A DNA stretch of 64,000 bases from Pristiophorus japonicus (taxonomy: Eukaryota): contig NW_027254627.1 in the NCBI RefSeq assembly GCF_044704955.1, positions 1-64,000 on the forward strand, read 5' to 3'. Numbering within the stretch: the first letter of the stretch is position 1; the number at the start of each line of letters is the position of its first letter. The notes under the pieces are model-generated. The model saw nothing but the letters and a program-made list of their open reading frames with translations, was not told where the DNA came from and ran no database searches. Positions 2,183 to 25,980 of the stretch are shown piece after piece. The translations under genes were made by a program, and so were the position numbers.

Positions 2183-2305
2183 AGGCAAAATATGGATTGT
2201 CAATGAAGAATGACAAATGCAGTGTACCAATAATATAGAATCTCATGGTGATGGGTTAATACTGTAGTATATACAGTGACAAGGGTTAATACAGTAGTAT
2301 AGAAT

Positions 2306-4192: not shown

Positions 4193-4572
4193 AGCAGCCA
4201 ATGAAGTACTTTTTGAAGTGCAGTCTCTGCTGTGATGCATGGTATCGCAGGGCCAATTTGCGCACAGCAAGCTCTCACAAATAGCAATGTGATAGCCTGT
4301 ATATTTTTGCTTTTTTCAGGGATTGGTATTGGCCAGGACACCAGGGAGAATCACTGCGCTTTAAAATAGTGCCATGGGATCTTTTACATCCATCTGTGAG
4401 GGCAGATGGGGCCTCGGTTTAACATCTCATCCGAGAGACAGCACCTCTGACAGTGCAGTGCTCCCTCAGTACTGCACTGGGAAAGTCAGCCGAGATTATG
4501 TGCTCGAGTGTGATTTGAAAACAAGACCTTCTGTCTCTGAGGCGAGAGTGCTACCCACTGAGCCACAGCTGA
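4192..4572 (-). mobile_element. tRNA-derived DeuSINE (SacSINE1/AmnSINE-like)
   Basis: Deu-domain-like core on the minus strand (TGCACTGTCAGAGGTGCTGTCTCTCGGATGAGATGTTAAACCGAGGCCCC...GATGTAAAAGATCCCATGGCACTATT) behind a tRNA-like head (TGGCTCAGTGGGTAGCAC...TTCAAATC). Family name is from recollection of the consensus, not a search. Confidence 0.75.
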
Positions 4573-4648
4573 TGAGTGTTTTGTGTTACACCGCCCGTCC
4601 TCACTGTACAACCTCTGTATACTGGAGAATGTAGGAATGGTTTCTTAC

Positions 4649-4999
4649 CATGTACGAGCTGCAGGCGTGTCTCAGTCTGGATCAGATTTATGTAATTGTC
4701 CCATCCCTTGTACTCCACCAGACACAGGTAAGTGTGGTTGTCCTTCACGCTCAGCTGCTTTATCCTGGTTGAAGCGTTTCCCTCCTTTGGGTTCCCGATG
4801 AGCTCGTACCGATTTCCACCATTTACAGTTGTCCAAGACCCTTTTGATTGGGCTCTAAATGTGACTATGTGTTGGTAGGGCTCCTTCCTCATCCATGTAA
4901 CAGTGGTCAGGTTGGTGTAGTCGCTGGGTGTGAACATACAGGGCAATGTAACCGAAGCTCCCTCGGTCCCTCTCACCACTGAGCCATTTCCACTAGCAG
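4649..4999 (-). CDS. Coding exon 3 of a Siglec-15-like Ig-superfamily gene: second V-set domain, no essential Arg
   Basis: Acceptor ...gtcctttcctcag|CT at 4999 and donor CATG|gtaaga at 4649; phase 1-1, 351 bp, open. Protein has VTLPC, VTW, RYELIGN, NAS..IKQL...D..TYLCLVE and TRLQLV. Confidence 0.9.
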
Positions 5000-5562
5000 C
5001 TGAGGAAAGGACAGACATCACAATATATCAGCGTTTTGATGAGAACTTTAATTTGTTTCAGTTCAGAGCTCTCCCTGTGGCCTATTGGTAGAGGCATTGC
5101 CCAGTGTCAGTAAGGATCCCAGGGAATGTGGGGTCAGGGGGCCAGGTAGCAGAATGGATTGAGAGATGCTACAAAACAGAAAATAGAGGATAGGAGACTA
5201 GCAGAAAGTGGGAGGTGGCATCCTTTGACTTACATTGAATGGTTCTATTAATACAACCCAATACCATCTGCTTTGGCTCTACATTGTTCCTGCACCGAGA
5301 GTGATCTATGCACAATAACACCTGGATCCCTTTCTCTCTGAACCACTTTCAGTGTTGTTCTCTGAAAATGGTAAGTGTATTCTGTGTTGATCCTACCTAC
5401 CTGCATCACACTGCATTTGTCGAGGTTAAATGCCGTATCAAATTTCTCATATGCTGTATCGCAAAATAGTATAACTGAAAGAAATCTATCTAATGTGCAT
5501 TTGCCTCACCCAAATGGCCTTCCTTAGAGCACAAGCCTGGTCAATGCATGTCAATGGACTAT

Positions 5563-8500
5563 TTAAGAACTTAAGAACATAAGAAATAGAAGCAGGAGTA
5601 GGCCATACGGCCCCTTGAGCCTGCTCCGCCATTTAATACGATCTTGGCTGATCTGATCATTGACTCAGGTCCACTTTCCTACCCTCTCCCCACAACCCCT
5701 TATTCCCTTATCGGTTAAGAAACTGTCTATCTCTGCTTTAAACGTATTCAATGTCCCAGCTCTCACAGCTCTCTGAAGCAGCGAATTACACAGATTTGCA
5801 ACCCTCTGAGAAAAGAAATTTCTCCTCATCTCAGTTTTAAATGGGCGGCCCTTTATTCTAAGATTATGCCCCCTAGTTCTAGTTCCCTTCATCAGTGGAA
5901 ACATTGGGCCCATACTCTCTACACCTTGTTAAGCACCCTCATAATCTTATACGTTTTGATAAGATCACCTCTCAATCTTCTGAATTCCAATGAGTAGAGG
6001 CCCAACCTACTCAAACTTTCCTCATAAGTCAACCCCCTCATCTCCGGAATCAACCTAGTGAACCTTCTCTGAACTGCCTCCAAAGCAAGTATATCCTTTT
6101 GTAAATATGGAAATCAAAACTGTACGCAGTATTCCAGGTGTGGTCTCACCAATACCTTGCATAACTGTAGCAAGACTTCCCTGCTTTTATACTCCATCCC
6201 CTTTGCAATAAAGGCCAAGATTCCATTGGCCTTCCTGATCACTTGCTGTACCTGCATACTAACCTTTTGTGTTTCATGCACAAGAACCAACAGGCCCCGC
6301 TGTTCTTCAGCACTTTGCAATCTTTCTCCATTTAAATGTTAGATGCAGGAAGAATGTTCCCGATGTTGGGAAAGTCCAGAACCAGGGGACATAGTCTAAG
6401 GATAAGGGGTAAGCCATTTAGGACTGAGATGAGGAGAAACTTCTTCACTCAGAGAGTTGTTAATCTTTGGAATTCCCTACTGCAGAGAGTTGTTGATGCC
6501 AATTCATTGGATATATTCAAGCGGGAGTTAGATATGGCCCTTAGGGCTAAAGGGATCAAGGGGTATGGAGAGAAAGCAGGAAAGGGGTACTGAGGTGAAT
6601 GATCAGCCATGATCATGTTGAATGGTGGTGCAGGCTCGAAGGGCTGAATGGCCTACTCCTGCACCTATTTTCTACGTTTCTTTGTAATAACTTGCTCTTT
6701 GATTTTTTTCTGTCAAAGTGCATGACCTCACACTTTCCAACATTATACGCATCTGCCAAATTTTTGCCCACTCACTTAGCTTGAAGATTTTTTGTGCCCT
6801 CACACATTGCTTTTCCTCCCATTTTGTATCATCAGCAAACTTGGCTACGTTACATTCGGTCCCTTCTTCCAAGTCGTTAACATAGATTTTAAATAGTTGG
6901 GGTCCCAGCACTAATCCCTGCGGCATCCCACTAGTTACTGATCTAACTTACTTCCTGCATCTAACCTGTCTAAACCCATCAGAATTTTAAACGTTTCTAT
7001 GAGGTCGCCTCTCATTCTTCTGAACTCCAGTGAATACAAGCCCAGTTGATCCAGTCTTTCTTGATAGGTCAGTCCCGCCATCCCGAGAATCAGTCTGGTG
7101 AACCTTCGCTGCACTCCCTCAATAGCAAGAATGTCCTTCCTCAGGTTAGGAGACCAAAACTGTACACAATACTCCAGGTGTGGCCTCACCAAGGCCCTGT
7201 ACAACTGTAGCAACACCTCCCTGCCCCTGTACTCAAATCCCCTCGCTATGAAGGCCAACATGCCATTTGCTTTCTTAACCGCCTGCTGCACCTGCATGCC
7301 AACCTTCAATGACTGATGTACCATGACACCCAGGTCTCGTTGCACCTCCCCTTTTCCTAATCTGTCACCATTCAGATAATAGTCTGTCTCTCTGTTTTTA
7401 CCACCAAAGTGGATAACCTCACATTTATCCACATTATACTTCATCTGTCATGCATTTGCCCACTCACCTAACCTATCCAAGTCGCTCTGCAGTCTCATAG
7501 CATCCTCCTCGCAGCTCACACTGCCACCCAACTTAGTGTCATCCGTAAATTTGGAGATACTACATTTAATCCCCTCGTCTAAATCATTAATGTACAGTGT
7601 AAACAGCTGGGGCCCCAGCACAGAACCTTGCGGTACCCCACTAGTCACTGCCTGCCATTCTGAAAAGTACCCATTTACTCCTACTCTTTGCTTCCTGTCT
7701 GACAACCAGTTCTCAATCTATGTCAGCACACTACCCCCAATCCCATGTGCTTTAACTTTGCACATTAATCTCTTGTGTGGGACCTTGTCGAAAGCCTTCT
7801 GAAAGTCCAAATATACCACATCAACTGGTTCTCCCTTGTCCACTCTACTGGAAACATCCTCAAAAACCATTTATCCATTTATCCCGGCTCTCTGTTTTCT
7901 GTTTGATAGCCAATCCTCTATCCATGCTAATATATTACCCGCAACCCCATTAACTTATATCTTGTACAGTAACCTTTTATGGGGCACCTTGTCAAATGCC
8001 TTCTGGAAGTCCAAATATACCACATCCACTGGTTCCCCTTTACCCACCCTCTTCGTTACATCCTCAAAGAATGCCAGCAAATTTGTCAAACATGACTTCC
8101 CCTTCATAAATCCATGCTGACTCTGCCTGACCTATAGAAACTTTTGATATCTGTTTTTATATTTTGTGTTAGTTTAATTTCATAGTCTATCGTCCCTTTC
8201 TTAATAATTTTTTAGTCATTCTTTGCTGGCTTTTAAAAGCTTCGAAATCTTCTGTCCTCCCACTAGTTTTGGCCACTTTGTATGCCCTTGTTTTTAATTG
8301 GATTTATTTCTTTAGTTAGCCGCGGCTGGCTATCTTTTCTCTTGCACCCTTTCCTCCTCATTGGAATATATTTTTCTTGAGAGTTGTGAATTATCTCCTT
8401 AAACGTACACCACTACTCATCAATTGTCCTACACTTTAATCTATTTTCCCAGTCCACTTTAGCCAACTCTGCCCTCATGCCTTCATAGTCTCCTTTATTT

Positions 8501-8612
8501 AAGCTTAGTACGTTGATTAGAGATTCAACTTTCTCACCCTCCATCTAAATTTGAAATTTAATCATGCTATGATCACTCATTCCAAGGGGATCCTTTACTA
8601 GGACATTGTTTG
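5563..8612 (-). mobile_element. Nested CR1 cluster: a minus-strand CR1 (5563-6336, 6681-6937, 7867-8612) interrupted by a plus-strand 3' fragment (6337-6680) and a minus-strand piece of a younger subfamily (6951-7866)
   Basis: RT and C-terminal motifs in ORFs 5665-5913, 6114-6320, 6336-6593, 6672-6926, 6935-7444 and 7448-7705. The host sequence is collinear across the inserts. Confidence 0.88.
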
Positions 8613-8692
8613 TCTATGGAGAGCATCACAGGCAGGCCCAATGTCTCATCCAATGTCCAAGAACACACCTACTGGAGAATGATCAGGAGCAG

Positions 8693-9283
8693 TGTTGTAG
8701 GAAGTAGGCACCTGCAGAATATATCAAAACACTAGGCATTAGGCACCTGTTAAATATATCTCAACTCATATAAGTTTAAAGTGTCCACACATAAAATGGC
8801 TGCCCAGGCATGATGGGAAATTAGGTAGTCAAGCTGTGAACTATTGACTGAGCAATGACCGAGCAATGACCCTGTGAGGCCCACTACCAGGAATGCCTTG
8901 GATACAAGATAAGAATAATAAACCAATTATTTCCCCAGGAAGAAAGAGATAAGGAGAGAACCTATCTCCTATAACAAGGTCATTAATCAGCCCGAGCTGA
9001 CAAAAACCGAACATGCAGTTCCTGAGGCACCAGGGGAATTCTATTGGGTTAAAAGAACCTATATAATCGTTATGATTGGATTATGTCCAGCCGTGATGGG
9101 CTGAGTAACTGTAGTAAACTGTTGTGAAACATATAAAAATCCATGTAACCCTTTGTTCTGTGGAGAGAAGCCTGGATACAGTCCTGAGACTTCCTCCCCG
9201 CTGAGCGTTAATAAAGGCCGCATTGGCGTTGGAACCGACTCTGAGTGTTGAGTGATTCTTCTGAGAAAACATTCACGCTAACA
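8693..9283 (+). mobile_element. Solo LTR (591 bp) with 5-bp TSD AGCAG
   Basis: TGTT...AACA termini; AGCAG at 8688-8692 and 9284-9288; TATAAAA at ~9133 and AATAAA at ~9210 on the + strand. Confidence 0.85.
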
Positions 9284-9427
9284 AGCAGGAACCCCAGGCA
9301 ATATACCCCCTTCATAGCCCGGGGTTGCTGAAAGTTTATTGATCCGTGTGGCTCAGGACCAGACCAGGTGGAGCCTTTCCCCACTAAGCTATCGGAGCAG
9401 CGACAGCCCCTGAGCATTGATCCTCAC

Positions 9428-9814
9428 CTCTCACACTCAGATCCGTTCCTTTCGATGTTCCAAATTTGCCAATATTGAGCTCCACACGACACAGATAACC
9501 AGCATTGTCCGCCTGGCTCAGCCGCTCCATCATTATCGAGGCATCTTTGTTGCTGAGGTTCCCCACGAATCTCAATCGATTCCCGCCTTCCTGCTGCCTC
9601 ACAATCTCACACAGCTCGCCCTGTTTATGGCCCAGACCAGAATATGTGCAGGTAAAAATAACGTTCCCTCTGTGACCTTTGAACCAAATCACAGTGCCGG
9701 TGAGCGGGCGATCAGTGGGTGGGTGGGTGAAACTGCACGGCAAGACAGCAGACCTCCCTTCCTCAGCACTCACTGTATCCGCGATGGTCATTGTCCAACC
9801 ATTGACAGAAAGCT
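9428..9814 (-). CDS. Coding exon 2 of the Siglec-15-like gene: N-terminal V-set sialic-acid-binding-type domain
   Basis: Acceptor ...tctctctccacag|AG at 9814 and donor AGAG|gtgagg at 9428; phase 1-1, 387 bp. WTMTIADTVSAEEGRSAVLPCSFTHP...IW...FTC...ELC...RFVGN...ERL..AD...YLCRVE has the 4-Cys pattern and F-strand Arg of Siglec-15. Confidence 0.92.
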
Positions 9815-9894
9815 CTGTGGAGAGAGAGACAACATTAACACAGCACTGGGTCAGACTCAGTGTTTCGAAAACATACTACGAGACGATATACTGA

Positions 9895-10168
9895 GGGGGC
9901 AAAATTGCCATTTTTATCGCCGGGAAATGGTTTCTGCCCGGGCGCGGAGCAAACATCGCCCCCCCCGTGGAATTGGGCGGGGGGTTTTGCGGAGGTGCTA
10001 CGAGGCAGCGCGGCGATGATGATGTCATCGTCCCCTTACTGACCCGCAAGTTAAATTGCCCCGAACAACCTACCTTAGCGCCTGGCGTTGACAACAACAG
10101 CTTCAGCTTGTAGTCAGGAACCGGATGGAGAGCGCTATTTAAAGTGCCATCTACCCAATCTATCATCA
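9895..10168. mobile_element. Possible Harbinger-like MITE fragment
   Basis: Abrupt GC-rich segment starting GGGGGCAAAATTGCC, resembling G-rich termini at ~3956-3972 and ~26057. Confidence 0.35.
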
Positions 10169-13100
10169 TAAGGTAACCCCCTCATCTCCGGAATCAGCCT
10201 AGCGAATCGTCTCTGTACCCCCTCCAAAGCCAGTATATCCTTCCTGAAGTAAGGTGATCAAAACTGCACGCAGTACTCCAGGTGCGACCTCACCAATACC
10301 CTGTACAGTTGCAGCAGGACCTCCCTGCTTTTGTACTCCATCCCTCTCGCAATGAAGGCCAACATTCCATTCGCCTTCCTGATTACCTGCTGCACCTGCA
10401 AACCATCTTTTTGGGATTCATGCACAAGGACCCCCAGGTCCCTCTGCACCACAGCATGTTGTAATTTCTCCCCATTCAAATAATATTCCCTTTTACTGTT
10501 CTTTTTCCCAAGGTGGATGACCTCACACTTTCCGACATTGTATTCCATCTGCCAAACCTTAGCCCATTCGCTTAACCTATCTAAATCTATTTGCAGCTTC
10601 TCTGTGTCCTCTACACAACCCGCTTTCCCACTAATCTTTGTGTCATCTGCAAATTTTGTTGCACTACACTCTGTCCCCTCTTCCAGGTCATCTATGTATA
10701 TTGTAAACAATTGTGGTCCCAGCACCGATCCCTGTGGCACACCACTAACCACCGATTTCCAACCCGAAAAGGACCCATTTATCCCGACTCTCTGCTTTCT
10801 GTTAGCCAGCCAATTCTCTATCCATGCTAATACATTTCCTCTGACTCCGTGTACCTTTATCTTCTGCAGTAACCTTTTGTGTGGCACCTTATCGAATGCC
10901 TTTTGAAAATCTAAATACACAACATCCATCGGTACACCTCTATCCACCATGCTCGTTATATCCTCAAAGAATTCCAGTAAATTAGTTAAACATGATTTCC
11001 CCATCATGAATCCATGCTGCGTCTGCTTGATTGCACTATTCCTATCGAGATGTCCCGCTATTTCTTTTTTAATGATAGTTTCAAGCATTTTCCCCACTAC
11101 AGATGTTAAACTAACCGGCCTATAGTTACCTGCCTTTTGTCTGCCCCCTTTTTTAAACAGAGGCGTTACATTAGCTGCTTTCCAATCCGCTGGTATCTCC
11201 CCAGAGTCCAGAGAATTTTGGTAGATTATAACGAATGCATCTGCTATAACTTCCGCCATCTCTTTTAATACCCTGGGATGCATTTCATCAGGACCAGGGG
11301 ACTTGTCTACCTTGTGTCCCATTAGCCTGTCCAGCACTACCCCCTAGTGATAGTGATTGTCTCAAGGTCCTCCATTCCCACATTCCTGTGACCAGCAATT
11401 TTTGGCATGGTATTTGTGTCTTCCACTGTGAAGACCGAAGCAAAATAATTGTTTAAGGTCTCAGCCATTTCCACATTTCCCATTATTAAATCCCCCTTCT
11501 CATCTTCGAAGGGACCAACATTTACTTTAGTCACTCTTTTCCGTTTTATATATCGGTAAAAGCTTTTACTATCCGTTTTTATGTTTTGCGCAAGTTTACC
11601 TTCGTAATCTATCTTTCCTTTCTTTATTGCTTTCTTAATCATTCTTTGCTGTCGTTTAAAATTTTCCCAATCTTCTATTTTCCTACTAACCTTGGCCACC
11701 TTATACACATTGGTTTTTAATTTGATACTCTCCTTTATTTCCTTGGTTATCCATGGCTGGTTATCCCTTCTCTTACCGCCCTTCTTTTTCACTGGAATAT
11801 ATTTTTGTTGAGCACTATGAAAGAGCTCCTTAAAAGTCCTCCACTGTTCCTCAATTGTGCCACCGTTTAGTTTGTGTTTCCAGTTTACTTTAGCCAACTC
11901 TGCCCTCATCCCACTGTAGTCCCCTTTGTTTAAGCATAGTACGCTCGTTTGAGACACTACTTCCTCACCCTCAATCTGTATTACAAATTCAACCATACTG
12001 TGATCACTTATTTCGAGAGGATCTTTTACGAGGAGATCATTTATTATTCCTGTCTCATTACACAGGACCAGATCTAAGATAGCTTGCTCCCTTGTAGGTT
12101 CTGTTACATACTGTTCTAAGAAACAATCCCGTATGCATTCTATGAATTCCTCCTCCAGGCTACCCCGTGCAATTTGATTTGACCAATCGATATGTAGGTT
12201 AAAATCCCCCATGATTACTGCCGTTCCTTTTTCACATGCCTCCATTATTCCCTTGATTATTGCCCACCCCACTGTGAAGTTATTATTTGGGGGCCTGTAA
12301 ACTACGCCCACCAGTGACTTTTTCCCCTTACTATCTCTAATCTCCATCCACAATGATTCAACATTTTGTTCATTAGAGCCAATATCATCTCTCATAACTG
12401 CCCTAATATCATCCTTTATTAACAGAACTACCCCACCTCCTTTCCCTTCTTGTCTATCTTTCCGAATTGTCAGATACCCCTGTATGTTTAATTCCCAGTC
12501 TTTGCCCCCCTGCAACCATGTTTCTGTAATGGCCACCAAATCATACCCATTTGTAATGATTTGTGCCGTCAACTCATTTACTTTATTTCGAATGCTGCGT
12601 GCGTTTAGGTAGAGTGTTTTAATCCTAGTTTTTAAACCATGATTTTTAGTTTTGGCCCCTCCTGCAGCCCTTTTATATTCAGTGGCCCTTTTTGTTTTTT
12701 GCCTTGGGTTTCTCTGCCCTCCACTTTTACTCATCTCCTTTCTGTCTTTTGCTTTTGTCTCCTTTTTGTTTCCCTCTGTCTCCCTACATTGGTTCCCATC
12801 CCCCTGCCATATTAGCTTAACTCATCCCCAACAGCACTAGCAAACACTCCCCCGAGGACATTGGTTCCGGTCCTGCCTAGGTGCAGACCGTCCGGTTTGT
12901 ACTGGTCCCACCACCTCCAGAACCGGTTCCAATGCCCCAGGAATTTGAATCCCTCCCTGCTGCACCACTGCTCAAGCCACGTATTCATCTGAGCTATCCT
13001 GCGATTCCTACTCTGACTAGCATGTGGCGCTGGTAGCAATCCTGAGATTACTACTTTTGAGGTCCTACGTTTTAATTTAGCTCCTAGCTCCTTAAATTCG

Positions 13101-13877
13101 TCTCGTAGGACCTCATCCCTTTTTTTTACCTATATCTTTGGTACCAATGTGCACCACGACAACTGGCTGTTCACCCTCCCTTTTCAGAATGTCCTGCACC
13201 CGCTCCGAGACATCCTTGACCCTTGCACCAGGGAAGCAACATACCATCCTGGAGTCTCGGTTGCGGCTGCAGAAACGCCTATCTATTCCCCTTACAATCG
13301 AATCCCCTATCACTATCGCTCTCCCACTCTTTTTCCTGGCCTCCTGTGCAGCAGAGCCAGCCATGGTGCCATGAACTTGGCTGCTGCTGCCCTCCCCTGA
13401 TGAGTCATACCTCTCAACAGTACTCAAAACGGTGTATCTGTTTTGCAGGGAGGTGACCGCAGGGGACCCCTGCACTACCTTCCTTGCACTGCTCTTCCTG
13501 CTGGTCTTCCATTCCCTACCTGGCTGTGGATCCTTCAGCAGCGGTAAGACCAACTCACTAAACGTGCTATTAACGTCATTCTCAGCATCGTGGATGCTCC
13601 AGAGTGAATCCACCCTCAGCTCCAATTCCACAACGTGGTCTGTCAGGAGCTGGAGGTGGATACACGTCCCTCACACATAGTCATCAGGTGTCCCTGAGTT
13701 CCCACATGGTACAGGAGGAGCATAACATGTGACCGAGCTCTCCTGCCATGACTTAACCCTTAGATACACTTAAATTGGCAACAACAATGCTAAAGTTTAC
13801 TCACTGTTATAGAAGAGAAAAAAGAAAAAATACTCACCAATCACCAGCCAATCATTTACCCCCTTGGCTGTGACGTT
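10169..13877 (-). mobile_element. Near-full-length CR1 LINE, 3'-truncated and frameshifted; sense to the host gene in intron 1
   Basis: ORF1 pieces 13113-13631 and 12812-13039 (GDS...DGLH esterase). ORF2 pieces 11337-12734 (APE: YLNARS, ETW, GDFN, SDH) and 10258-11337 (RT: QHGF, DFQKAFD, FADD). Confidence 0.95.
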
Positions 13878-13889
13878 TGGGTGGTTTAT

Positions 13890-16210
13890 ACATAGAATAT
13901 AGGAACAGGAGTAGGCCATTGGCAGAACAGGCTTGAAGGACTCATTCAATGAGATCATGGCTGATCTGCGACTTATTTCCATATATTGGCCTGTGGTCCA
14001 TATCTCTTAATACCTTTGGTTAATAAAAAGCTAACAAAATCCGATTTAAAATTAACAATTGATTTTGCGTGAATTGTCGTTTGCGGAACAGTGTTCCAAA
14101 CTTTTACAACCCTTTGAGTGTAGAAATGTTTCCTGATTTCACTCCTGAAAGGTCTGGTTCTAATTTCTAGTCTTCACCTGCTAATCCTAGAATCGCCAAC
14201 CAGTGGATGTGGTATCTCTCTATCGACCCTATCTGTTCGCCTTAATATCTTGAAAACTTTGATGAACCACTCAATCTTCTAAAGTCAAGAGAATACAACC
14301 ATAATTTGTGTAATCTCTCCTCGTAACTTAACCCTTGAAGTCCGGGTTTTATTCTGATAAATCTAGGCTGCATTCCTTGTAAAGCCAATATATAATTCCT
14401 AAGGTATGGTGCCAGAACTGCTTACAGTATCCCAGGTGTGGTCTAACCAAGGTTTTATATAGCTGCAGCATAACATCTACCCACTTGTATTATAGTCCTC
14501 TAGCTATAAAGGCCAGCATTCCAGTGGCCTTTTAACAATTATTTTCTGTACCTGTTCATGACATTTTTATGAACTTGCATGAATTGTCGTTTCCGGAACA
14601 GTGTTCCAAACTTTTACAACCCTTTGAGTGTAGAAGTGTTTCCTGATTTCACTTCTGAAAGGTCTGGTTCTAATTTCTAGTCTCGATGTACCTGAATCCC
14701 CAAGTCTCTTTGGACGTCCACTGTTTATAGACTTTCACCATTTAGAAAGTTCCCTGTTCTATCCTTTTTAGGTCCAAAGTGGATGACCTCATATTTGCCT
14801 ACATTAAAATCCATTTGCCACAGTTTTGCCCATTCAGTTAATCTGTCGATATCCCTTTGTAATTTTGTGCTTTCAGCTACACTGCCTGCAATGCCGCCTA
14901 TCTTTGTGTCATTGGCAAACTTGGATATATATGATTTTCTATCCCATCATCATGTTGTTAAATATTGTGAATAGTTGAGGCCCCAACACAGATCCCTGTG
15001 GGACACCACTAGACACAGCTTGCCAATTTGAGTACCTACCCATTATTCCTACTGCCTGTCTCCTACCGCTCAGCTAATTTCCTAACCAGGTCAGTAATTT
15101 GCCCTCAATTCCGTGGGCTTCTACATTAGTTAACAGTCTCTTATGTGGGATTTTATCAAATGCCTTCTGGATGTCCATATAAATAACCTCCATAGACATT
15201 CCCCTGTCTACTGCTTTAATCTTCTCCTCAAAAACTGCAATCAGGTTTGTCAGGCATGACCTACCTTTCACAAATCCATGCTGGCTCTCTCTGATCAACT
15301 GAAAATTTTCAAAGTCTTCAGTCAGCCTATCCTTAATTATAGACTCTAGCAACTTCTTGACAACAGATGTTCGGCTAACTGGTCTATAATTCCCCGGTTT
15401 TCCTCTCTTACCATTCTTAATTAGCAGACTGACTTATGCAATTTTCCAATCTAAAGGAACAGTTCCTGAATTGAGAGAACTTTGGAGGATTATAATTAGG
15501 GCATCTGCAATGTGCTCACCGACTTCTTTTAAACCCTGGGATGGAAACCATCTGATCCTGGGGATTTGTCAGTCCTCAGTGCTATTATTTTCTTCATTAC
15601 TGTTATTTTACTTACGTTAATTTTATTGCGTCCCTATCCCTGATTCAATATTAGTTCCCTTGGGATTTCTGGCATGCTATCATCCTCTTCTGCTGTAAAT
15701 ACTGACACAAAGTAATTATTCAACATGTCCACCATTTCCTCATCATTGACAGTATCACCACTTTCAGTTTTCATGGGGCCAACATTGCTCCTGACTGCCC
15801 TCTTTTTCCTAATGTAACTGTAAAAATTCTTTGTGTTGATTTAGATTTCCCTTACAAGTTTCTTTGCGTATTCCTTTGTTGTAGCTCTTACGATCTCTTT
15901 TGTGACCCTTTGCTGTTCTTTGTATCTTTCCCTTTCGTGAGCATCTACTTTGCTACTTTGCTACTTTGCATTGTTGTACACTTTTTCTTTTAGTTTTATG
16001 CTGTCCTCTTTAGTCGTCAATGGCTGTTTTTTGGGCAAGTACAGCTCTTGCCCCTCAGGGGTATAAACTGGTTCTGTATCATCTTAAATTCTTTTTGGGC
16101 CATTCCCCCACTGGCCTTCTGTCATTTTATCCATTAACAGGTTTTCCCAGTTTACTGAGGACAGTCTCTGTCTCATCCCGTTAAAATCGGCCTTACCCAA
16201 TCTTGAATCC
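13890..16210 (-). mobile_element. Old decayed CR1 LINE fragment
   Basis: 3' tail at ~13890 and ORF 15074-15352 (QHGF..RSCLTNL, KAFDKIPH). Confidence 0.85.
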
Positions 16211-16545
16211 AAGGCGCGATTTCACCTACCGAGGCGGGCTCAGTGTGGCGAAATAGGTGACGGGTTGGGACCCCACTTCCAGCTCCATCCCACTCTCTAA
16301 AAAATAATTTTACGTTGATGGGGCATGTTGGGGCCTGCGAGGTTCCTGGCCAATTAAAAAGAAGCGGGTTTGATGACATTATTTGATGACATGTCATCAG
16401 ACAGTTTCCTTAAAGGGACCATGTTCACAATCATTTTGACAGTTGTACTGTAAGTGTTTTGCAGCATTGCAATGCTGCACACACTGACAAGCACGGCACA
16501 AAGGTGCATGGCTGCACCCAGGCACTCCCATGACTCCCTCCATAC

Positions 16546-16750
16546 GCTTACATACCAAAGTTCCACCATACCACCCTTTTCAAATGGTGCAGCAGAGCAC
16601 ACAGTACAAATTGTAAAACATGCCCTCATCAAGCAAATGTTGTATCCAAATCCAAAGAAATGGCAATTGTTGTTGGACTACAAATTAGCTAATTTTCTGA
16701 TAACTTATCATAATACTCCTCATACAACTACTTGTAGAAAACCAGCAGAG
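16546..16750 (+). mobile_element. Gypsy integrase fragment (family of 31205-40458)
   Basis: SNGAAEHTVQIVKHALIKQM matches SNGAAERTVQIVKRALIKQM of ORF 31476-32090. Confidence 0.8.
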
Positions 16751-19700
16751 TTGCCTCCCTGGTGCAAGGGTCAAGGATGTCTCGGAGCTGGTGCAGGACA
16801 TTCTGAAAAGGGAGGGTGAACAGCCAGTTGCCGTGGTGCATATAGGTACCAACGATATAGGTAAAAAAAAATGGGATGAGATCCTACGAGACGAATTTAG
16901 GGAGCTAGGAGCTAAATTAAAAAGTAGGACCTCAAAAGTAGTAATCTCAGGATTGCTACCAGTGCCACGTGCTAGTCAGAGTAGGAATCGCAGGATAGCT
17001 CAGATGAATACGTGGCTTGAGGAGTGGTGCAGAAGGGAGGGATTCAAATTCCTGGGACATTGGAACCAGTTCTGGGGGAGGTGGGACCAGGACAAACCGG
17101 ACGGTCTGCACCTGGGCAGGACCGGAACCAATGTTCTAGGGGGAGTGTTTGCTAGTACTGTTGAGGAGGAGTTAAACTAATATGGCAGGGGGATGGGAAC
17201 CTATGCAGGGAGGCAGAGGGAAATAAAAAGGAGACAGAGGCAAAAGATAGAAAGGAGAATAGTAAAAATGGAGGGCAGAGAAACCCATGGGAAAAACAAA
17301 AAGGGCCACATTACAGCAAAATTCTAAAGGGGCAAAGTGTGTTAAAAAGACAAGCCTGAAGGCTCCACGCCTCAATGCAAGGAGTATTCAGAATAAGGTG
17401 GACGAATTAACTGTGCAGGTAGCAGTTAATGGATATGATGTAGTTGGCATCACAGAGACATGGCTCCAGGCTGCGGACTCAACATCCAGGGGTACTCAAC
17501 ATTTAGGAAGGATAGACAGAAAGGAAAAGGAGGCGGGGTGGCGTTGCTGGTTAAAGAGGAAATTAATGCAATAATAAGGAAGGACATTGGCTTGGATGAT
17601 GTGGAATCGGTATGGGTGGAACTACGGAAGACCAAAGGGCAGAGAACGCTGATGGGAGTTGTGTACAGGCCACCAAACAGCAATAGCGAGTTTGGGGACA
17701 GCATCAAACAAGAAATAAGGAATTTGTGCAATAAAGGTACAGCAATTATCATGGGCGAATTTAATTTACATACAGATTGGGCTAACCAAACTGGTAGCAA
17801 TGCGGTGGAGGAGGATTTCCTGCAATATATTAGGGATGGTTTTCTTGACCAATATGTCAAGGAACCAACTAGAGAGCTGGCCATTCTAGACTGGGTGATG
17901 AGTAATGAGAAGGGACTAATTAGCAATCTTGTTGTGCAAGGCCCCTTGGGGAAGAGTGATCATTTTATGGTAGAATTCTTTATTAAGATGGAGAGTGACA
18001 CAGTTAAATCAGAAACTAGGGTCCTGAACTTAAGGAAAGCTAACTTCGATGGCATGAGGTGTGAATTGGCTAGAATAGACTGGCGAGTGATACTTAAAGG
18101 GTTGACGGTGGATAGGCAATGGCAAACATTTATAGATCACATGGTTGAACTTCAACAATTGTACATACCTGTCTCGAGTAAAAATAAAACGGGGAAGGTG
18201 GCTCAACCGTGGCTAACAAGGGAAATCAAGGATAGTGTTAGATCCAAGGAAGAGGCATATAAATTGGCCAGAAAAAGCAGCAAACCAAAGGACTGGGAGA
18301 AATTTAGAATTCAGCAGAAGAGGACAAAGGGTTTAATTAGGAGGCGGAAAATAGAGTACGAGAAGAAGCTTGCCGGGAACATAAAAACTGACAGCAAAAG
18401 CTTCGATAGATATGTGAAGATAAAAAGAGCAGTGAAGACAAACATAGGTCCCTTGCAGTCAGACTCAGGTAAATTTATAATGGGGAACAAAGAAATGGCA
18501 GACCAATTGAACAAATACTTTGGTTCTGTCTTCACGAAGGAAGATACAAATAACCTTCCGGATGTACTAGGTGACCGAGGGTCTAGTGAGAAGGAGGAAT
18601 TGAAGGATATCCTAATTAGGCGGGAAATTGTGTTGGGGAAATTGATGGGATTGAAGGCCGATAAATCCCTGGGGCCTGATTGTCTGCATCCCAGAGTACT
18701 TAAGGAAGTACCCCTAGAAATAGTGTATGCATTGATGATCATTTTCCAACAGTCTATCGACTCTGGATCAGTTCCTATGGACTGGAGGGTAGCTAATGTA
18801 ACACCACTTTTTAAAAAAAGAGGGAGAGAAAACGGGTAATTATAGACTGGTTAGCCTGACATCAGTAGTGGGGAAAATGTTGGAATCAATTATTAAGGAT
18901 GAAATAGCAGCGCATTTGGAAAGCAGTGACAGGATCGGTCCAAGTCAGCATGGATTTATGAAAGGGAAATCATGCTTGACGAATCTTCTGAAATTTTTTG
19001 AGGATGTAACTAATAGAGTGGACAAGGGAGAACCAGTGGATGTGGTGTATTTGGACTTTCAAAAGGCCGTTGACAAGGTCGCACATAAGAGATTGATGTG
19101 CAAAATCAAAGCACATGGTATTGGGGGTAATGTACTGGCGTGGATAGAGAATTGGTTGGCAGACAGGAAGCAGAGAGTCGGGATAAATGGGTCCTTTTCG
19201 GAATGGGAGGCAGTGACTTTAGAGTGCCGCAGGGCTCAGTGCTGGGACCCCAGCTCTTTACAATATACATCAATGATTTGAATGAAGGAATTCAGTGTAA
19301 TATCTCCAAGTTTGCAGATGACACTAAACTGGGTGGCGGTGTGAGCTGTGAGGAGGATGCTAAGAGGCTGCAGGGTGACTTGGACAGGTTAGGTGAGTGG
19401 GGAAATGCATGGCAGATGCAGTATAATGTGGATAAATGTGAGGCTATCCACTTTGGTGGCAAAAACACGAAGGCAAAATATTATCTGAATGGCGGCAGAT
19501 TAGGAAAAGGGGAGGTGCAACGAGACCTGGGTGTCATGGTTCATCAGTCATTGAAAGTTGGCATGCAGGTATATCAGGCGGTGAAGAAGGCAAATGGCAT
19601 GTTGGCCTTCATAGCTAGGGGATTTGAGGTATAGGAGCAATTGTACAGGGCCTTGGTGAGGCCTCACCTGGAATATTGTGTTCAGTTTTGGTCTCCTAAT

Positions 19701-20219
19701 CTGAGGAAGGACGTTCTTGCTATTGAGGGAGTGCAGCGAAGGTTCACCAGACTGATTCCAGGGATGGCTGGACTAACATAGGAGAAGGGACTGGATCAAC
19801 TGGGCCTTTATACACTGGAGCTTAGAAGGATGAATCTCATAAAAACTCATAAGATTCTGACGGGACTGGACAGGTGAGATGCAGGATGATTGTTCCCGAT
19901 GTTGGGGAAGTCCAGAACCAGGGGACATAGTCTTAGGATAAGGGGCAGGACATTTAGGACTGAGATGAGAAGAAACTTTTTCACTCAGAGAGTTGTTAAC
20001 CTGTGGAATTCCCTGCCGCAGAGAGTTGTTGATGCCAGTTCATTGGATGTCTTCAAGAGGGAGTTAGATATGGCCCTTAAGGCTAAAGGGATCAAGGGGT
20101 ATGGAGAGAAAGCGGGAAAGGGGTACTGAGATGAAGGATCAGCTATGATCTTATTGAATGGTGGTGCAGGCTCAAAGGGCCAAATGGCCTACTCCTGCAC
20201 CTATTTTCTATGTATCTAT
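16751..20219 (+). mobile_element. 5'-truncated CR1 LINE (ORF1 C-terminal part plus frameshifted ORF2)
   Basis: ORFs 16791-17180, 17287-17574, 17460-18839, 18868-19281, 19140-19634 and 19890-20129; tail ...TTTTCTATGTATCTAT. Confidence 0.95.
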
Positions 20220-20378
20220 TAAAGGATTTGATTATTTCCTCTGGTGGGGTAGTGGAGAACAAGGGGCATGACAATAAAATTAGAGCTAGACCGTTCAGGG
20301 GTGATGTCAGGAAGCACTTCTTCACTCAAAGGGTTGTGTAAATCTGGAACTCGCTGCCAAAAAGCTGGTGATGCTGGG

Positions 20379-23300
20379 TGATAGGTCCTTACTACACAGT
20401 ATAAATGCACACGAGGCCCATGCTTGAGAGAAGGTCAGTCTGTGACCTGTCCTTTATTCCTTAGCACTCAAGTGATGAAGGTGGGTGGAGCTTCCCCTTT
20501 TATACCTGAAGGTCCAGGTTAGGCGTGTCTCCCACCTAGTGGTCAGTGTTCTCATGGTGTACAACTTAGGTCAGTTTATACATGGGTTACAATGCTGGTT
20601 GAATACATGACATCACCTCCCCCCCCAAAGTCTTATTGGGATCACAGGTTGAGTCTCTCTGGTAGTTTACGCTCCCTTGTAGAGCGCCTGAGTTGGGGCT
20701 CCAGTTGTTGGGCGCTGGCCTGAGTGTCTGCTGTTTGCGGTGCCTCAGGCCTGTCCGGACTGCCCACAGTGACTGGGCTCTCCTCCCTTTGGTTCTGGTG
20801 TTCGGTCACCTGTGGTGGAGTGAACTCTATATCGTGTTCTTCCTCTGCTTCTTCTATGGGGTTGCTGAACCTCCTTTTTGTTTGATCCACATGTTTGCGG
20901 CAGATTTGTCCATTGGTAAGTTTAACTACCAGAATCCTATTTCCCTCTTTGGCAATCCCAGTGCCTGCGAGCCATTTGGGCCCTGCAGCGTAGTTGAGTT
21001 CAAAAACAGGATCATTTACATCAATACATCGCGCCCTCGCATTCCTGTCATGGTAGTGATATTGTGACTGGCGCCTGCTCTCAACAATTTCTTTCATGGT
21101 GGGGTGTATAAGGGATAATCGGGTTTTGAGCGTCCTTTTCATTAGTAGCTCTGCGGGTGGAACCCCTGTGAGCGAGTGTGGTCGGGTTCTATAGGCCAAC
21201 AGGAGGCGTGATAAGCGGGTTTGTAGGGAACCCCCTTGGAATCTGAGCATCCCCTGTTTGATTATCTGCACTGCTCGTTCTGCCTGGCCGTTTGAGGCCG
21301 GCTTGAACGGTGCCGTTCTAACATGGTTAATTCCATTGCCTGCCATGAAGTCCTGGAATTCAGTGCTTCTGAAGCACGGGCCATTGTCGCTGACCAAGAT
21401 GTCCGGTAGACCGTGGGCGGCGGACATTGCCCGTAGACTTTCTACCGTGGCAGAGGATGTGCTTGAATTTAAAATGTCACACTCGATCCATTTGGAGTAG
21501 GCGTCTACTACAACCAAAAACATTTTCCCCATGAAAGGACCTGCGTAGTCCACATGGATGTGTGACCAAGGCTTGGCGGGCCATGGCCAGGGGCTAAGGG
21601 GGGCTTCCCTGGGCGCATGGCCCAGCTGGGCACACGTGTTGCACCTGCGAACACAAAGTTCCAGATCTGCGTCTATCCCTGGCCACCAAACGTGTGACCT
21701 GGCAATTGCCTTCATCGTGACAATGCCCGGGTGCCCATTGTGGAGTTCTCTGATGAAATCCTCTCTGCCCATCTGGGGCACGACTGCGCGGTTTCTCCAC
21801 AGTAGGCAATCGGCCTGAATCGAGAGTTCATCCTTGCGCCTGTGAAATGGTTTAAATTTTTCAGGGCATGCCCTGTACGTGGCTGCCCAGTCCCCATTCA
21901 GGACACATTTCTTGACTAGAGACAATAGCGGGTCTCTATTTGTCCAGACTTTAATCTGACAGGCTGTCAGGGGTGAGCCTTCGCTTCTGAAAGCTTCAAC
22001 AGCCAATGACCATCTCAGCACCATGCTCGGTAGCCCCCTCAGTGGTGGCTAGTTGGAGCCTGCTGAGTGCATCGGCGCAGTTTTCGGTGCCCGGTCTGTG
22101 CCGAATTGTGTAGTCATATGCAGCTAACGTGAGTGCCCACCTCTGTATGTGGGCCGATGCGTTTGCATTTATGGCCTTGTTGTCGGCCAAAAGGGACGTT
22201 AGGGGTTTGTGATCTGTCTCCAGCTCAAATTTCCTGCCAAACAGGTACTGGTGCATTTTCTTTACCGCATATACACATGCGAGCGCCTCCTTTTCTACCA
22301 TCCCGTAGCTCCTTTCTGCCTGGAACAGACTCCTGGAGGCATAAGCTACCGGCTGTAACTGACCCTTGACATTGACATGCTGTAACACACACCCGACACC
22401 ATAGGACGATGCATCGCACGTTAACACAAGTTTCTTACATGGGTCATATAGCGTTAACAGATTGTTGGAACATAACAAATTGCATGCTCTATTAAAAGCC
22501 CTTTCCTGGTTGTCCCCCCAGACCCATTCGTGACCTTTGCGTAGGAGCACGTGTAGCGGCTCTAGCAGCGTGCTCAATTTGGGAAGAAAGTTACCAAAAT
22601 AGTTCAGGAGCCCCAGGAATGAACGCAGCTCCGTCGTGTTACGGGGTCTGGGTGCTCTCTGGATCGCTTCCGTCTTGGATGCAGTAGGGCTGATCCCGTC
22701 TGCTGCTACCCTCATCCCCAGGAATTCTACTCTGGAGCTAGGAAGACGCACTTCGCCTTTTTCAGTCGCAGACCTACCCGGTCCAGTCTGCGTAGCACCT
22801 CCTCCAGGTTGTGGAGGTGTTCTTCAGTATCGTAACCCGTAATGAGGATGTCGTCCTGAAAAACCACCGTCCCTGGAATCGACTTGAGGAGGCTTTCCAT
22901 ATTTCGTTGAAAGATTGCGGCGGCCGAGCGAATCCCGAACGGACATCTGTTGTACTTAAACAACCCCTTGTGTGTCGTGATGGTGGTCAGCTTCTTCGAC
23001 TCACTCGCCAGCTCCTGGGTCATGTAAGCTGAGGTTAGGTCCAATTTTGAAAAAAGCTTGCCACCGGATAGCGTTGCAAAGAGGTCCTCCGCTCTCGGTA
23101 GCGGGCACTGGTCTTGGAGTGACACCCGATTGATGGTGGCCTTGTAATCACCACATATCCTGACCGACCCATCCGCCTTGAGCACCGGCACAATCGGGCT
23201 CGCCCAGTCACTGAATTCGACTGGCGAGATGATGCCTTCCCTCAACAGGCGGTCTAATTCGTCTTCTATCTTTTCCCGCATCATGTACGGCATCGCTCTG

Positions 23301-24499
23301 GCCTTGTGGTGTACTGGTCTGGCGTCCGGGTTTATGTGAATTACTACCTTGGCCCCCATGAAAGTGCCAATGACGGGTTGAAATAATGAGTCAAATTTGT
23401 CCAGGACCTGTGAGCATGATACTCGCTCCACAGAGGAAATTGCATTGACATCGCCCCATTTCCAGTTCATGACAGCAAGCCAACTCCTCCCCAGTAGTGC
23501 GGGACCATCCCCTGGGACAATCCAGAGTGGCAACCAGTTCTCCGAATCTTTGTGGGTCACGACTACCGTGGCGCTGCCTAGCACCGGAATGATCTGCTTT
23601 GTGTAAGTCCGTAGCTGTGCGTCAATCGGCGATAATTTTGGCCTCCTGGCCTTGGATGCCCACAACTTTTTGAACTGTTTGATACCCATCAGGGACTGGC
23701 TGGCACCCGTGTCTAACTCCATTGATACTGGGATGCCATTGAGGAGCACTTTCATCATTATCGGTGACGTCCTGGTGTATGAACTGTATACGTGCTCCAC
23801 ATGAACTCGCTGAACTTCAGCTCCCAGCGATTTCCCCCAGTGTCCATTTCTGCAATTTCTGCAGGTATTTTGCTCATCTCTGCAAACTCCGGCTGAGTGT
23901 ATGCCTCCCTGCCTCCAGCATGAGTTGCGGTTTGAAACAAAAGGTCCCTTGCCAGTCGATCGTCCCTGACTGCCCCTGTTATTGTCCTTGAGTGCACCAT
24001 TAACAGGTGTTGATGGCCCCATTACTGGCCGCATTGTCCCTTGCAATGGCGTGAATCGCTGTTCAGCTTGCCATTGTCTCTGTCGAACTCCCCCTCTGGG
24101 TTTGACTACATGTTGGGGCATGCCTGACTGCCCTAGTCTGCCTGGAGAACTGTGTGCTGCTTTAACAATGTTGAATCTCTGTCCCAACCATTCCTTAACA
24201 CAGTACCTCTCGTCTGTTCGGCTAGTGGCCATGCTCGCGTTTAAATCCCAGTTTCTTGTCGCCATTGATAGGTCCTTACTACACAGTATAAATGCACACG
24301 AGGCCCATGCTTGAGAGAAGGTCAGTCTGTGACCTGTCCTTTATTCCTTAGCACTCAAGTGATGAAGGTGGGTGGAGCTTCCCCTTTTATACCTGAAGGT
24401 CCAGGTTAGGAGTGTCTCCCATCTAGTGGTCAGTGTTCTCACGGTGTACAACTTAGGTCAGTTTATACATGGGTTACAATGCTGGTTGAATACATGACA
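20379..24499 (-). mobile_element. Ty3/Gypsy LTR retrotransposon with both LTRs, gag largely deleted, pol frameshifted
   Basis: 234-bp LTRs at 20379-20612 and 24266-24499 (3 differences seen); TSD CTGGG; PBS TGGCGACAAG; PPT at 20613-20627; PR (DTGA), RT (FQDD), RH (DAS) and IN (HHCC, DNG) in Gypsy order. Inserted into a CR1 fragment (20220-20378/24500-24670). Confidence 0.96.
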
Positions 24500-24944
24500 C
24501 TGGGGGTCAGTTGAAAATGTCAAAACTGAGATTGATAGGTTTCTGTTAGGCAAGGCTATTAAGAGTTGTGGAACCAAGGCGGGTAGATGGAGAGCAGACA
24601 CAGATCAGCCATGATCTAATTGAATTGCGGAACAGGTTGGAGGGGCTGAATGGCCTTCTCTGGTCCCAATGCAGAGGTAGGGAGTTACAGGGCTATGGAG
24701 GGATCTATAGACAAGGACAAGAGATTTAAATTGAATGTATGATGGGATGGGCTGCCAGAGAAGGTCAGGGGGTGATACACACAAGCAGACAAAAAAGACC
24801 AGCTGGCACCTTCAGAGATAAAGAGAGAGAGAATGATCATTTCTCCCAGACACCGACAGCTGCCTACACCAGCTCTCAGCTCCCTCTGCCACTTCCAATA
24901 TCTCCACCACCCTTGGTTACCCAGCTATACAATGGTCACGCCAC

Positions 24945-25600
24945 AGGACAGGTAGAAACATTAATCAAAAAGGCTGATGGAATATTAGCCCTTATGTCGA
25001 ATGGGCTAGAATAGGAAAGAAAGATATTTTGCTACAGCTATAAAAAAAACTCTGGTTGGACCACATATTGAGTACAGCTCTGGGCACCATATGTAAGGAA
25101 GGATATATTGGCCTTCGAAGGAGTGTAGCTCAGTTTCACCAGAATGTTACCAGGGCTCCAAGGGTTACATTTTGAGGAGAGATTACATAATGTAGACTTG
25201 TAGTCCATGGAATATAGAAGGTTAAAGGGTGATTTGATTGAGGTTTTTAAGATATTGAGAGGAATTGTTAGGGTAGATCAAGAGAAGCTTTTTTGCTGGT
25301 GGGGAAGTCGAGGATAAGGGAACATAACGTTACATTCAGAGCCAGACCTTCCACCAGAGGTCAGGAAAAACTTCTTGACACAAAGGGTGGTAGAACTGTG
25401 TGGAACTCTCTCTGTAAAAATACCCAGCGCAAGAAATAATTTTAGCTCTGAGATCGATAGATTTTTGCGAGCCAAGTGTAGTAAGGGATATGGAGCCAAG
25501 GCAGGTGAATGGAGTTAAGGTACACATCAGCCAGGATCTCATTAAATGGCAGGACAGACTCGAGGGGCTGAATGGCCTACACCTCTTCCTATGTTCCTTG
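24945..25600 (+). mobile_element. Decayed CR1 3' fragment
   Basis: Degenerate ORF2 C-terminus and the 3' UTR motif GGGGCTGAATGGCCTAC. Confidence 0.75.
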
Positions 25601-25762
25601 TGTCTCACTAGAAACCTGACACTCGCTCTGCCCCTCCCTGTTTCTCTGACTGACCGTCGCTCCCCTGGACTTTCACCCACTGCAACCCAGCGATGAAATA
25701 GTAAAAAGGAGCAGTTTATGCAACAAAATGAATGTGAACAGTTGTTATTGGAAAGCACCTAC

Positions 25763-25823
25763 TGTGACCCTGCACCGAGACCGACAGCAGGACTGCGGGA
25801 AGCCAAACGTAGAGAGAATTCAT
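25763..25823 (-). CDS. Coding exon 1 (signal peptide) of the Siglec-15-like gene: MNSLYVWLPAVLLSVSVQGH+A
   Basis: GCG-ATG start at 25823, a hydrophobic 20-aa leader, and phase-1 donor CACA|gtaggt at 25763. It splices in frame to the 9814 acceptor (A+AG = Lys) and lies in non-repetitive sequence. Confidence 0.8.
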
Positions 25824-25899
25824 CGCCAGCTCTCCGGTGTTTCGTCCTTCTCCTTCGCTGCTTCTTGTCTCCTGACACCGAAATACAGAAGTTGCTCAA

Positions 25900-25980
25900 A
25901 GTGTTTCTTCACTTCCTCTGCAACCTGCGTAAACTGTTGATCAATATCACTGAATTTAACAGGCTAACAGGAAGTGTCTT
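25900..25980 (-). promoter_or_regulatory. Putative promoter with two ETS/PU.1-type sites
   Basis: AGAGGAAGTGAA (minus strand, 25908-25919) and ACAGGAAGTG (plus strand, 25967-25976), about 85-150 bp upstream of the leader ATG. Confidence 0.5.

Follow-up and report, generated by a model that had tools for sequence, protein, structure and literature searches.

A V-V receptor gene of a Siglec-15-related shark and ray family, likely activating, at a contig end in the sawshark Pristiophorus japonicus

The window, by which we mean the whole 64,000-nucleotide stretch analysed here, carries a receptor gene on the minus strand whose three exons are bounded by GT donors and AG acceptors, with every junction in phase 1 and an open spliced frame of 266 amino acids. 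Exon 1 (25763..25865) provides the leader, with a coding part at 25823-25763 (61 nt) and a 5' UTR reaching at least to 25865. Exon 2 (9428..9814, 387 nt) encodes a Siglec-15-type V-set domain, V1, with W27, the cysteine pairs C47-C129 and C76-C89, R130 (codon at 9488-9486) and F138, while exon 3 (4649..4999, 351 nt) encodes a second V-set domain, V2, in which the F-strand Arg is replaced by Leu and the extra cysteine pair is missing. Intron 1 (9815..25762, 15,948 nt) is filled with LINE pieces (endonuclease and RT) and a broken LTR retrotransposon (RT and integrase, about 20.6-24.3 kb of the window), elements that we take to be of the CR1 and Gypsy types, and intron 2 (5000..9427, 4,428 nt) consists mostly of repeats. 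Some 90 bp upstream of the ATG lies an ETS/PU.1-like motif, GAGGAAGT (25911..25918, minus strand), to which we would assign a promoter role; its GGAAGT core, presumably of ETS type, is kept in 3/4 aligned paralogue promoters, including that of a paralogue with an ITIM tail.

The preliminary description of this DNA had proposed in-frame splicing of these exons, and both joints are present in public sequence contigs, as expected of an expressed, spliced gene: 25763/9814 in contigs from 3/3 runs (99% likeness) and 9428/4999 in two of the three (90% likeness). One contig (X3) spans 25763-25865 joined to 9814, and another (X1) matched 197 exon-2 bases with 0 differences. The runs belong to a single study with the run kind unrecorded, and we took them as RNA because their contigs carry GT-AG joints; a processed copy was rejected as their source, every V1/V2 pair found in the genome being split by an intron. 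The gene had also been called hidden, which does not hold, because its 266-aa product is identical to an existing database entry, automatically named 'Siglec-10' of a sawshark. Taken singly, it is an ordinary, already auto-annotated family member whose annotation is misnamed and truncated.

Sequence, fold, both pairs of cysteines and the Trp/Arg pair all mark domain 1 as Siglec-15-type. Human Siglec-15 was its best PDB sequence match (E 7e-16, against 7.5e-6 for CD33) and its family-profile match reached 5e-29, while in a VIA re-alignment of Foldseek chains Siglec-15 ranked first among the 997 chains aligned, superposing over 120 residues at an rmsd of 1.7 A (Z 13.5), and CD33 chains reached Z 10.1-10.5. 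All the motifs picked out beforehand are there (W27-x-M, C47-x-FTHP, F-x-C76...ELC89 and Y-x-C129-R130-V-E). In alignment, C47-C129 and C76-C89 fall on Siglec-15 C64-C142 and C95-C104, which predicts the same bonds, and W44/R143/Y154 correspond to W27/R130/F138; V1 lacks an equivalent of the human contact Y87, and its FG loop is 3 residues shorter. Cysteines occur in the receptor only at 47, 76, 89, 129, 170 and 242, V2 having just two. The second domain is a V-set (E 5.5e-16), not the C2 domain of Siglec-15, domain 2 of SIGLEC15 orthologues scoring as I-set/Ig_3. TIM proteins were among the best V2 matches listed, and in the domain tree shark V2 forms a clade of its own that groups weakly with TIM-like domains (88/86).

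Contig G000:C4015 ends at window base 1, with no adjoining sequence on that side. Transmembrane and tail exons had been expected in an adjacent window to the left; the expectation of such exons downstream stands, and the adjacent window does not exist. Inside the window, tblastn gave no credible match to them among the matches listed, and genome searches gave none. The start of intron 3 (1878..4648, minus strand) is collinear with the intron that leads from V2 to a lysine-bearing transmembrane (Lys-TM) exon in activating paralogues, matching those genes at 87-94% across as much as 2.5 kb, whereas similarity to the ITIM gene covers only the exon and ~40 nt. It is followed to the contig end by the left half of a terminal-inverted-repeat element (1..1877, minus strand; TAT target duplication, G/C-rich simple repeat at the contig end), the right half of which lies ~1.26 kb before an orphan Lys-TM exon at G000:C1:12,687,126 and at C4093:1,723. 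Because the upstream DNA (39188..64000, minus strand) matches at 99.3% the 24.8 kb directly before a 200-N gap at G000:C1:12,685,157, we placed window positions 1-39,187 in that gap. The orphan exon beyond it encodes a Siglec-15-like lysine whose context recurs in the SIGLEC15 orthologues of vertebrates that include lungfish, coelacanth and frog, and the encoded peptide is identical in 4/4 copies found, each with intact splice sites of compatible phase. From intron-3 collinearity, the split element and the gap fit, this exon very probably belongs to the gene and would complete a protein of ~304 aa whose tail, a few residues long, lacks a tyrosine motif; among the contigs, none was seen joining V2 of this allele to a TM exon. 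Since the window fits the gap that precedes a Lys-TM exon, with a transposon split across the break, the receptor is most likely activating.

We therefore read the gene, with a probability of about 0.72, as a leader-V1-V2 receptor of a Siglec-15-related shark and ray family that likely signals through a Lys-TM segment and is predicted to recognize a glycan. On balance, alignment leans towards sialic-acid binding through R130 with W27 and F138, given that W27, R130, the G-strand aromatic and both disulfide positions are kept and that the Arg is retained in 53 of the 68 parsed family records. The Y-x-C-R-V-E string is not diagnostic by itself, as an identical or nearly identical Arg motif occurs in other V domains, which we take to be TIM-like and PILR-like. 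Both other Lys-TM genes of the same subfamily in this genome have Gly at the Arg position, and the Arg is kept in 6/17 and lost in 11/17 Lys-TM protein records against a loss in 2/29 inhibitory-type records, in crude regex classes of non-independent isoforms (22 unclassed, 3 lacking a parsed V1). With the Arg missing from so many activating members, these may be retained for something other than glycan binding, and a less likely reading, to which we nonetheless give real weight, has an activating receptor for a microbial protein or lipid in which the Arg is a passenger of conversion with an inhibitory gene. Besides the missing Y87 counterpart and the weak TIM-like grouping of V2, that reading can draw on a V1 dN/dS of ~1 (1.02 between the window copy and its nearest copy). 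With 1/21 pairs at p<0.05, uncorrected, the pairwise comparisons do not support positive selection on V1, and values near 1 are equally compatible with relaxed constraint and diversifying selection. Zebrafish Siglec-15 is described in the available text of PMC7226832 as binding the tested glycans weakly. Coupling to a DAP12-type adaptor is a probable consequence of the predicted lysine; a search of the genome for the DAP10 family came back blank, which is uninformative for so incomplete a first look at short exons.

The gene had been suspected to be a lineage-specific paralogue, and genome searches bear this out, revealing a cluster with 7 near-identical V1 exons and three further subfamilies, and with activating, ITIM-bearing and soluble forms among sharks and rays. 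The same genome holds Lys-TM genes and an ITIM-tail gene at C1:11.21 Mb (P0010) with V1 88% identical, that is, similar ectodomains with opposing tails, which is the pattern of a paired-receptor family. The V1 of the window agrees with the ITIM gene at 94.1% and with activating paralogues at a lower 89.8-92.3%, and the homology around it extends 533 bp at 94% to the ITIM gene as against ~870 bp at 87-92% to activating genes. V1 and V2 each reject the topology of the other (AU 0.0013 and 0.0006), and ectodomains cluster by species rather than by tail type. These patterns suggest that the V1 exon and an inhibitory paralogue have exchanged sequence by conversion, in the manner of primate Siglec-11/16; the Arg and other ITIM-like sites shared with the ITIM gene may be ancestral and do not determine the direction of conversion. 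The closeness of V1 to the ITIM gene, together with TM-skipped soluble isoforms in database records (P0011, P0040) that the reading frame would permit here too, could also indicate an inhibitory receptor or mainly a secreted decoy. This is unlikely, as a Lys-TM exon is where the gap, the split element and the start of intron 3 each point, and as ITIM tail exons were found, in the stretches examined and by genome search, only at C1:11.22-11.24 Mb.

Orthology was assessed with a V1 tree of 94 rows and 131 columns whose outgroup labels are mostly our own assignments, in which V1 fell with SIGLEC15 and Siglec-15-like domains in a 52-row clade (91/95), an alternative grouping of shark V1 with classical Siglec V domains not being rejected (AU 0.34). 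A Siglec-15-type V1 with a Lys-TM, and the lack of any Siglec-15-like V exon outside the cluster in two protein searches of the genome (best outside match E 1e-4), are what a one-to-one orthologue of mammalian SIGLEC15 would show. Such orthology is not supported and seems very doubtful: bony-vertebrate SIGLEC15 and SIGLEC15-like domains group together (80/81) with all shark domains outside, the gene has no C2 domain, and a V-V-C2-Lys gene at C1:12.76 Mb is closer in architecture. The urea-transporter and ATP synthase alpha-type genes, which we take to be the neighbours of human SIGLEC15, lie on C2 and not with the cluster on C1; the 200 kb downstream of the last C2 urea-transporter gene, a stretch too short to establish absence, yielded no Siglec-15-like V exon. 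Because of the many cluster copies, the position of these neighbours and the tree, the gene does not look like a single-copy, syntenic Siglec-15.

Membership in the CD300/TREM/pIgR-like MDIR family of skates, or among CD33/CD22-type Siglecs, is very improbable. MDIRs are described, in the available text of PMC3031540, as multigenic activating and inhibitory V-type receptors of cartilaginous fish, pIgR was the second profile match by summed domains, and a classical-Siglec grouping of V1 was not rejected (AU 0.34); yet no CD300 or TREM chain appeared in 28 V1 matches, the best 60 of 202 V2 matches or 16 profile matches, 0/42 homologues bear the MDIR name, and the cysteine pattern is that of Siglec-15 rather than the B-E type of classical Siglecs. 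The V1 of subfamily B retrieved no homologues, and no description of the shark and ray family appeared among the literature matches listed, though subscription journals and supplements may hold one. That the gene is an assembly duplicate or a decaying pseudogene is just as improbable: the contig is unplaced, its sister C4093 agrees with the window at 99.9% from 15 to 41 kb and 2/7 subfamily copies are disrupted by a stop or frameshift in V2, but the frames are open, the splice sites intact and spliced contigs from 3/3 runs carry exon 2 of this allele with 0 differences, and since V1 differs from that of C4093 at 20 nt and 14 aa, the window gene is a distinct allele or copy.

Under our preferred reading of an activating family member, the V1-V2 receptor would continue into the lysine-bearing transmembrane exon and, once V1 has bound its ligand, for which we predict a sialylated glycan, signal through a DAP12-type ITAM adaptor, and skipping of the Lys-TM exon would yield a soluble form. 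Probably this gene acts as the activating partner of the inhibitory ITIM gene at C1:11.21 Mb, the ligand domains of the pair being held alike by conversion limited to the exon; a microbe that exploits the inhibitory member would therefore set off the activating one. More tentatively, and at somewhat less than even odds, the cluster may be the cartilaginous-fish Siglec-15, an ancient, polymorphic paired system, comprising activating, inhibitory and soluble receptors, that reads sialic acid as self through a conversion-matched ligand exon, in which this gene and its sister copy are activating members with the inhibitory sugar site, single-copy mammalian SIGLEC15 is a remnant and paired-Siglec logic is far older than primates. 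The current view of Siglec-15 is of one conserved activating receptor, which is also a drug target, and the known Siglec pairs that gene conversion keeps similar come mainly from primates. With a Siglec-15-type family in sharks and rays that has a V-V ectodomain, includes members of both signalling types and has gained and lost the Arg, it becomes testable what Siglec-15 originally did and how old the recognition of self by sialic acid is.

Among known systems, CD33-related Siglecs, CD22, MAG and Siglec-1 combine B-E intrasheet and interdomain cysteines with subsequent C2 domains, and the sawshark receptor has neither that pattern nor a C2 domain. Siglecs 11/16 and 5/14 are CD33-related V-C2 Siglecs. 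These primate pairs (PMC5701461, PMC4042635) resemble the shark system in joining inhibitory and activating receptors with near-identical ligand domains, ligand-exon conversion and relaxed constraint, but the sharks build on a V-V scaffold of Siglec-15 type, and sharks and rays have both kinds of tail in common. Skate MDIRs, CD300 and TIM proteins share V-type domains and the activating/inhibitory multigene logic, TIM being among the best V2 matches; a Siglec-15-type V1 and a two-cysteine V2 would set the sawshark gene apart. Tandem V domains recur in a lungfish V-V-C2 Siglec-15 (P0085) and in chimaera, ray and shark V-V-C2 relatives (P0091, P0093, P0077), which share Lys-TM or tyrosine-motif tails; unlike the sawshark gene they keep the C2 domain, and both lungfish V domains are SIGLEC15-type where shark V2 is a separate clade. 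Human Siglec-15 itself (PDB 7zoz; W44/R143, C64-C142 and C95-C104 in its V-set, in the available text of PMC10264397 and PMC6941304) is matched in the B-F and C'-C'' disulfide positions, the W44/R143 equivalents, the top fold match and, by inference for the sawshark gene, a TM lysine for DAP12-type coupling, and it differs in that the sawshark second domain is V and not C2, Y87 has no equivalent, the tail is a few residues without a tyrosine motif, and the gene sits in a multigene cluster with inhibitory and soluble forms away from the urea-transporter chromosome.

The window gene comprises three minus-strand exons (leader, 25823-25763; V1, 9814-9428; V2, 4999-4649) whose canonical phase-1 splice sites and open frame of 266 residues once joined bear out the structure claimed in the preliminary description at the same coordinates. 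Among spliced contigs from three public runs, all of one study, junction 25763/9814 was joined in all three runs (99% likeness) and junction 9428/4999 in two of the three as listed (90% likeness). Because the sequence skipped in these contigs begins with GT and ends with AG when read on the strand of the gene, we took the runs to be RNA; several contigs matched exon 2 of the window copy with zero differences, indicating that the window allele is expressed. At junction 9428, a contig of one run (X2) combined a window-type V1 end with a V2 start carrying the Asp codon of the ITIM gene (the inhibitory-type paralogue at C1:11.21 Mb, protein P0010), and may represent a further allele or a recombinant. 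The introns contain LINE and LTR retroelement pieces. Elsewhere in the window, an apparently intact plus-strand LINE lies at 35633-39567 (ORF1, 316 aa, esterase-like; ORF2, 1002 aa, endonuclease/RT), and a gap in scaffold C1 starts within its counterpart. The gene is not "hidden" as had been claimed, being already a database entry, misnamed and truncated; we found no description of its family in searches of the open literature.

Both Ig exons encode V-set domains. The top match of V1 among solved structures was human Siglec-15 (E 7e-16, and 5e-29 with a family profile; CD33, 7.5e-6), and its AlphaFold model (pLDDT 82.9) aligned best, among 997 chains, to the human Siglec-15 structure 7zoz (Z 13.5, rmsd 1.7 A, 120 residues). 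Passages of PMC10264397 give disulfides C64-C142 and C95-C104 and sialic-acid contacts R143, W44, Y154 and Y87 for the human protein; V1 carries C47/C129, C76/C89, R130, W27 and F138, lacks a residue at the Y87 position and has an FG loop three residues shorter. Exon 2 had thus been correctly described as a Siglec-15-type V-set. V2, with Siglec-15 and TIM proteins as top matches, lacks the F-strand Arg and the extra cysteines.

When 1.84 billion proteins were searched with a profile, the matches included true SIGLEC15s, V-V-C2 proteins of lungfish, chimaera and rays, and Siglec-15-like receptors with uncharged transmembrane (TM) segments from bony fish such as sturgeon and bowfin. Lungfish P0063 has seven Siglec-15-type V domains in tandem, and newt P0090 and record P0095 are V-V forms with tyrosine-motif tails. 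The Siglec-15-like family thus extends beyond the one gene of mammals. In a 94-domain tree built on a short alignment, shark V1 grouped with SIGLEC15 and Siglec-15-like domains (91/95), bony-vertebrate SIGLEC15/Siglec-15-like domains formed a subgroup (80/81), and shark V2 formed a separate group (93/84) adjoining TIM-like domains (88/86). An AU test did not reject (p 0.34) a grouping of window-subfamily V1 with the domains of classical Siglecs. Given that p-value and the short alignment, the tree carries less weight in assigning V1 to the Siglec-15 type than do its sequence score, its cysteines, its fold and the TM-lysine context that the family shares with SIGLEC15.

The window gene belongs to a cluster, as expected of the lineage-specific paralogue proposed earlier, that covers C1:11.2-13.3 Mb and two unplaced contigs and holds seven V1 exons of the window subfamily alongside three further subfamilies (V-V with uncharged TM, V-V-C2 with a lysine-bearing TM exon or Lys-TM, and V-C2 with uncharged TM). 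Urea transporters and an ATP synthase alpha-type gene, which we take to be the neighbours of human SIGLEC15, map to another scaffold, C2 (a tandem pair of urea-transporter genes lies at 100.7-101.2 Mb), and neither genome protein searches nor the 200 kb downstream of the last urea-transporter gene on that scaffold yielded a Siglec-15-like exon beyond the cluster. A many-to-many relation to SIGLEC15, rather than one-to-one orthology, best describes the cluster.

The Arg is present in four of the seven subfamily V1 exons (window gene, contig C4093, ITIM gene and a frameshifted copy) and lost in three, including both other Lys-TM genes. Across 71 isoform-rich family records (V1 parsed in 68), sorted into crude classes, it was retained in 27/29 inhibitory-type, 6/17 Lys-TM and 20/22 unclassed proteins. 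Subfamily-B V-V genes with uncharged TM (C1:13.29 and 13.02 Mb; loci L029, L033) possess a Tyr in the V1 C-C' loop, like human Y87, with Arg in the 13.29 Mb copy and Gly in the 13.02 Mb copy at the Arg position. ITIM-gene homology around V1 is confined to 533 bp at 94%, whereas activating paralogues align over a longer region at lower identity, and V1 rejects the V2-preferred topology and vice versa (AU 0.0013, 0.0006). This pattern suggests exon-limited gene conversion, in either direction, as PMC5701461 describes for Siglec-11/16, although some sites common to the two V1 exons may be ancestral. Positive selection on V1 was not supported (dN/dS near 1). At the ITIM gene the leader exon is normal and the promoter conserved (C1:11,201,532-11,201,772; L083), and the differing N-terminus of its database protein P0010 is probably a mis-annotation or alternative first exon.

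TM and tail exons had been expected left of the window, but the window is C4015:1-64000 and its left edge is where that contig ends; such exons would lie beyond the break. In family proteins of other sharks and rays, the TM either is uncharged and comes with tyrosine motifs or bears a Lys and has a very short tail behind it. The V2-to-TM intron of Lys-TM genes runs collinear with window 1878-4848, where the ITIM gene aligns over no more than the exon plus some 40 nt. Two of the four Lys-TM exons that genome searches found are orphans, one directly after a 200-N gap at C1:12,685,157 and one at the start of C4093. Window 1-1877 holds the left half of an inverted-repeat element that went into a TAT site; its right half and the duplicated TAT, which run on into the same intron sequence as at the empty site in a paralogue, precede both orphan exons. 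Window 64000-39188 is matched at 99.3% by the 24.8 kb that lead up to the C1 gap, implying that the leader, V1 and V2 of the window are what is missing there. The splice phase of the TM exon is compatible, and the tail exon after it reaches a stop within a few residues; TM-exon skipping puts the tail exon in another frame, giving a soluble form (compare isoforms P0011 and P0040). No contig joining the window allele to the TM exon was seen among those of the three runs; on four lines of genomic evidence we infer strongly that the gene continues into a Lys-TM exon. C4015 and C4093, 99.9% identical over 15-41 kb with differences at 20/387 V1 and 6/351 V2 bases, may be either alleles or tandem copies.

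Judged from sequence, the window gene would work like a Siglec-15-type activating receptor within a paired system. Its product would most likely be a myeloid or lymphoid surface receptor, a cell type suggested solely by family knowledge and a promoter motif that we take to be ETS-like. V1 would bind ligand with V2 as spacer, and the receptor might counter microbes that engage its inhibitory twin. Glycan binding by V1 is an uncertain prediction, because fish Siglec-15 reportedly bound the tested glycans weakly (PMC7226832) and activating members frequently lose the Arg. An acidic residue in an ITAM adaptor would be the partner of the TM lysine, as PMC6941304 describes for Siglec-15; a DAP10-family search of the genome, for a target with short exons, gave no match, and the relevant passages of a 2014 survey report no FcR-gamma in sharks (PMC4016189).

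Compared with known systems, the window gene falls outside strict Siglec-15 membership by orthology and by its second domain, which is V-set here but C2/I-type in SIGLEC15 orthologues, so that the architectures differ. The minus-strand V-C2-TM gene at C1:12,735,492-12,723,979 (L095, L129), which has the F-strand Arg and an uncharged TM and lacks W-x-M and the extra Cys pair, resembles in architecture the Siglec-15-like receptors with uncharged TM known from sturgeon and bowfin. The cluster member nearest to SIGLEC15 by architecture is the minus-strand V-V-C2 gene at C1:12,765,232-12,756,232 (L025, L028, L127), with relatives in chimaera and rays; in this cluster gene Leu replaces the V1 Arg, and the Lys-TM and C2 domain share one open frame.
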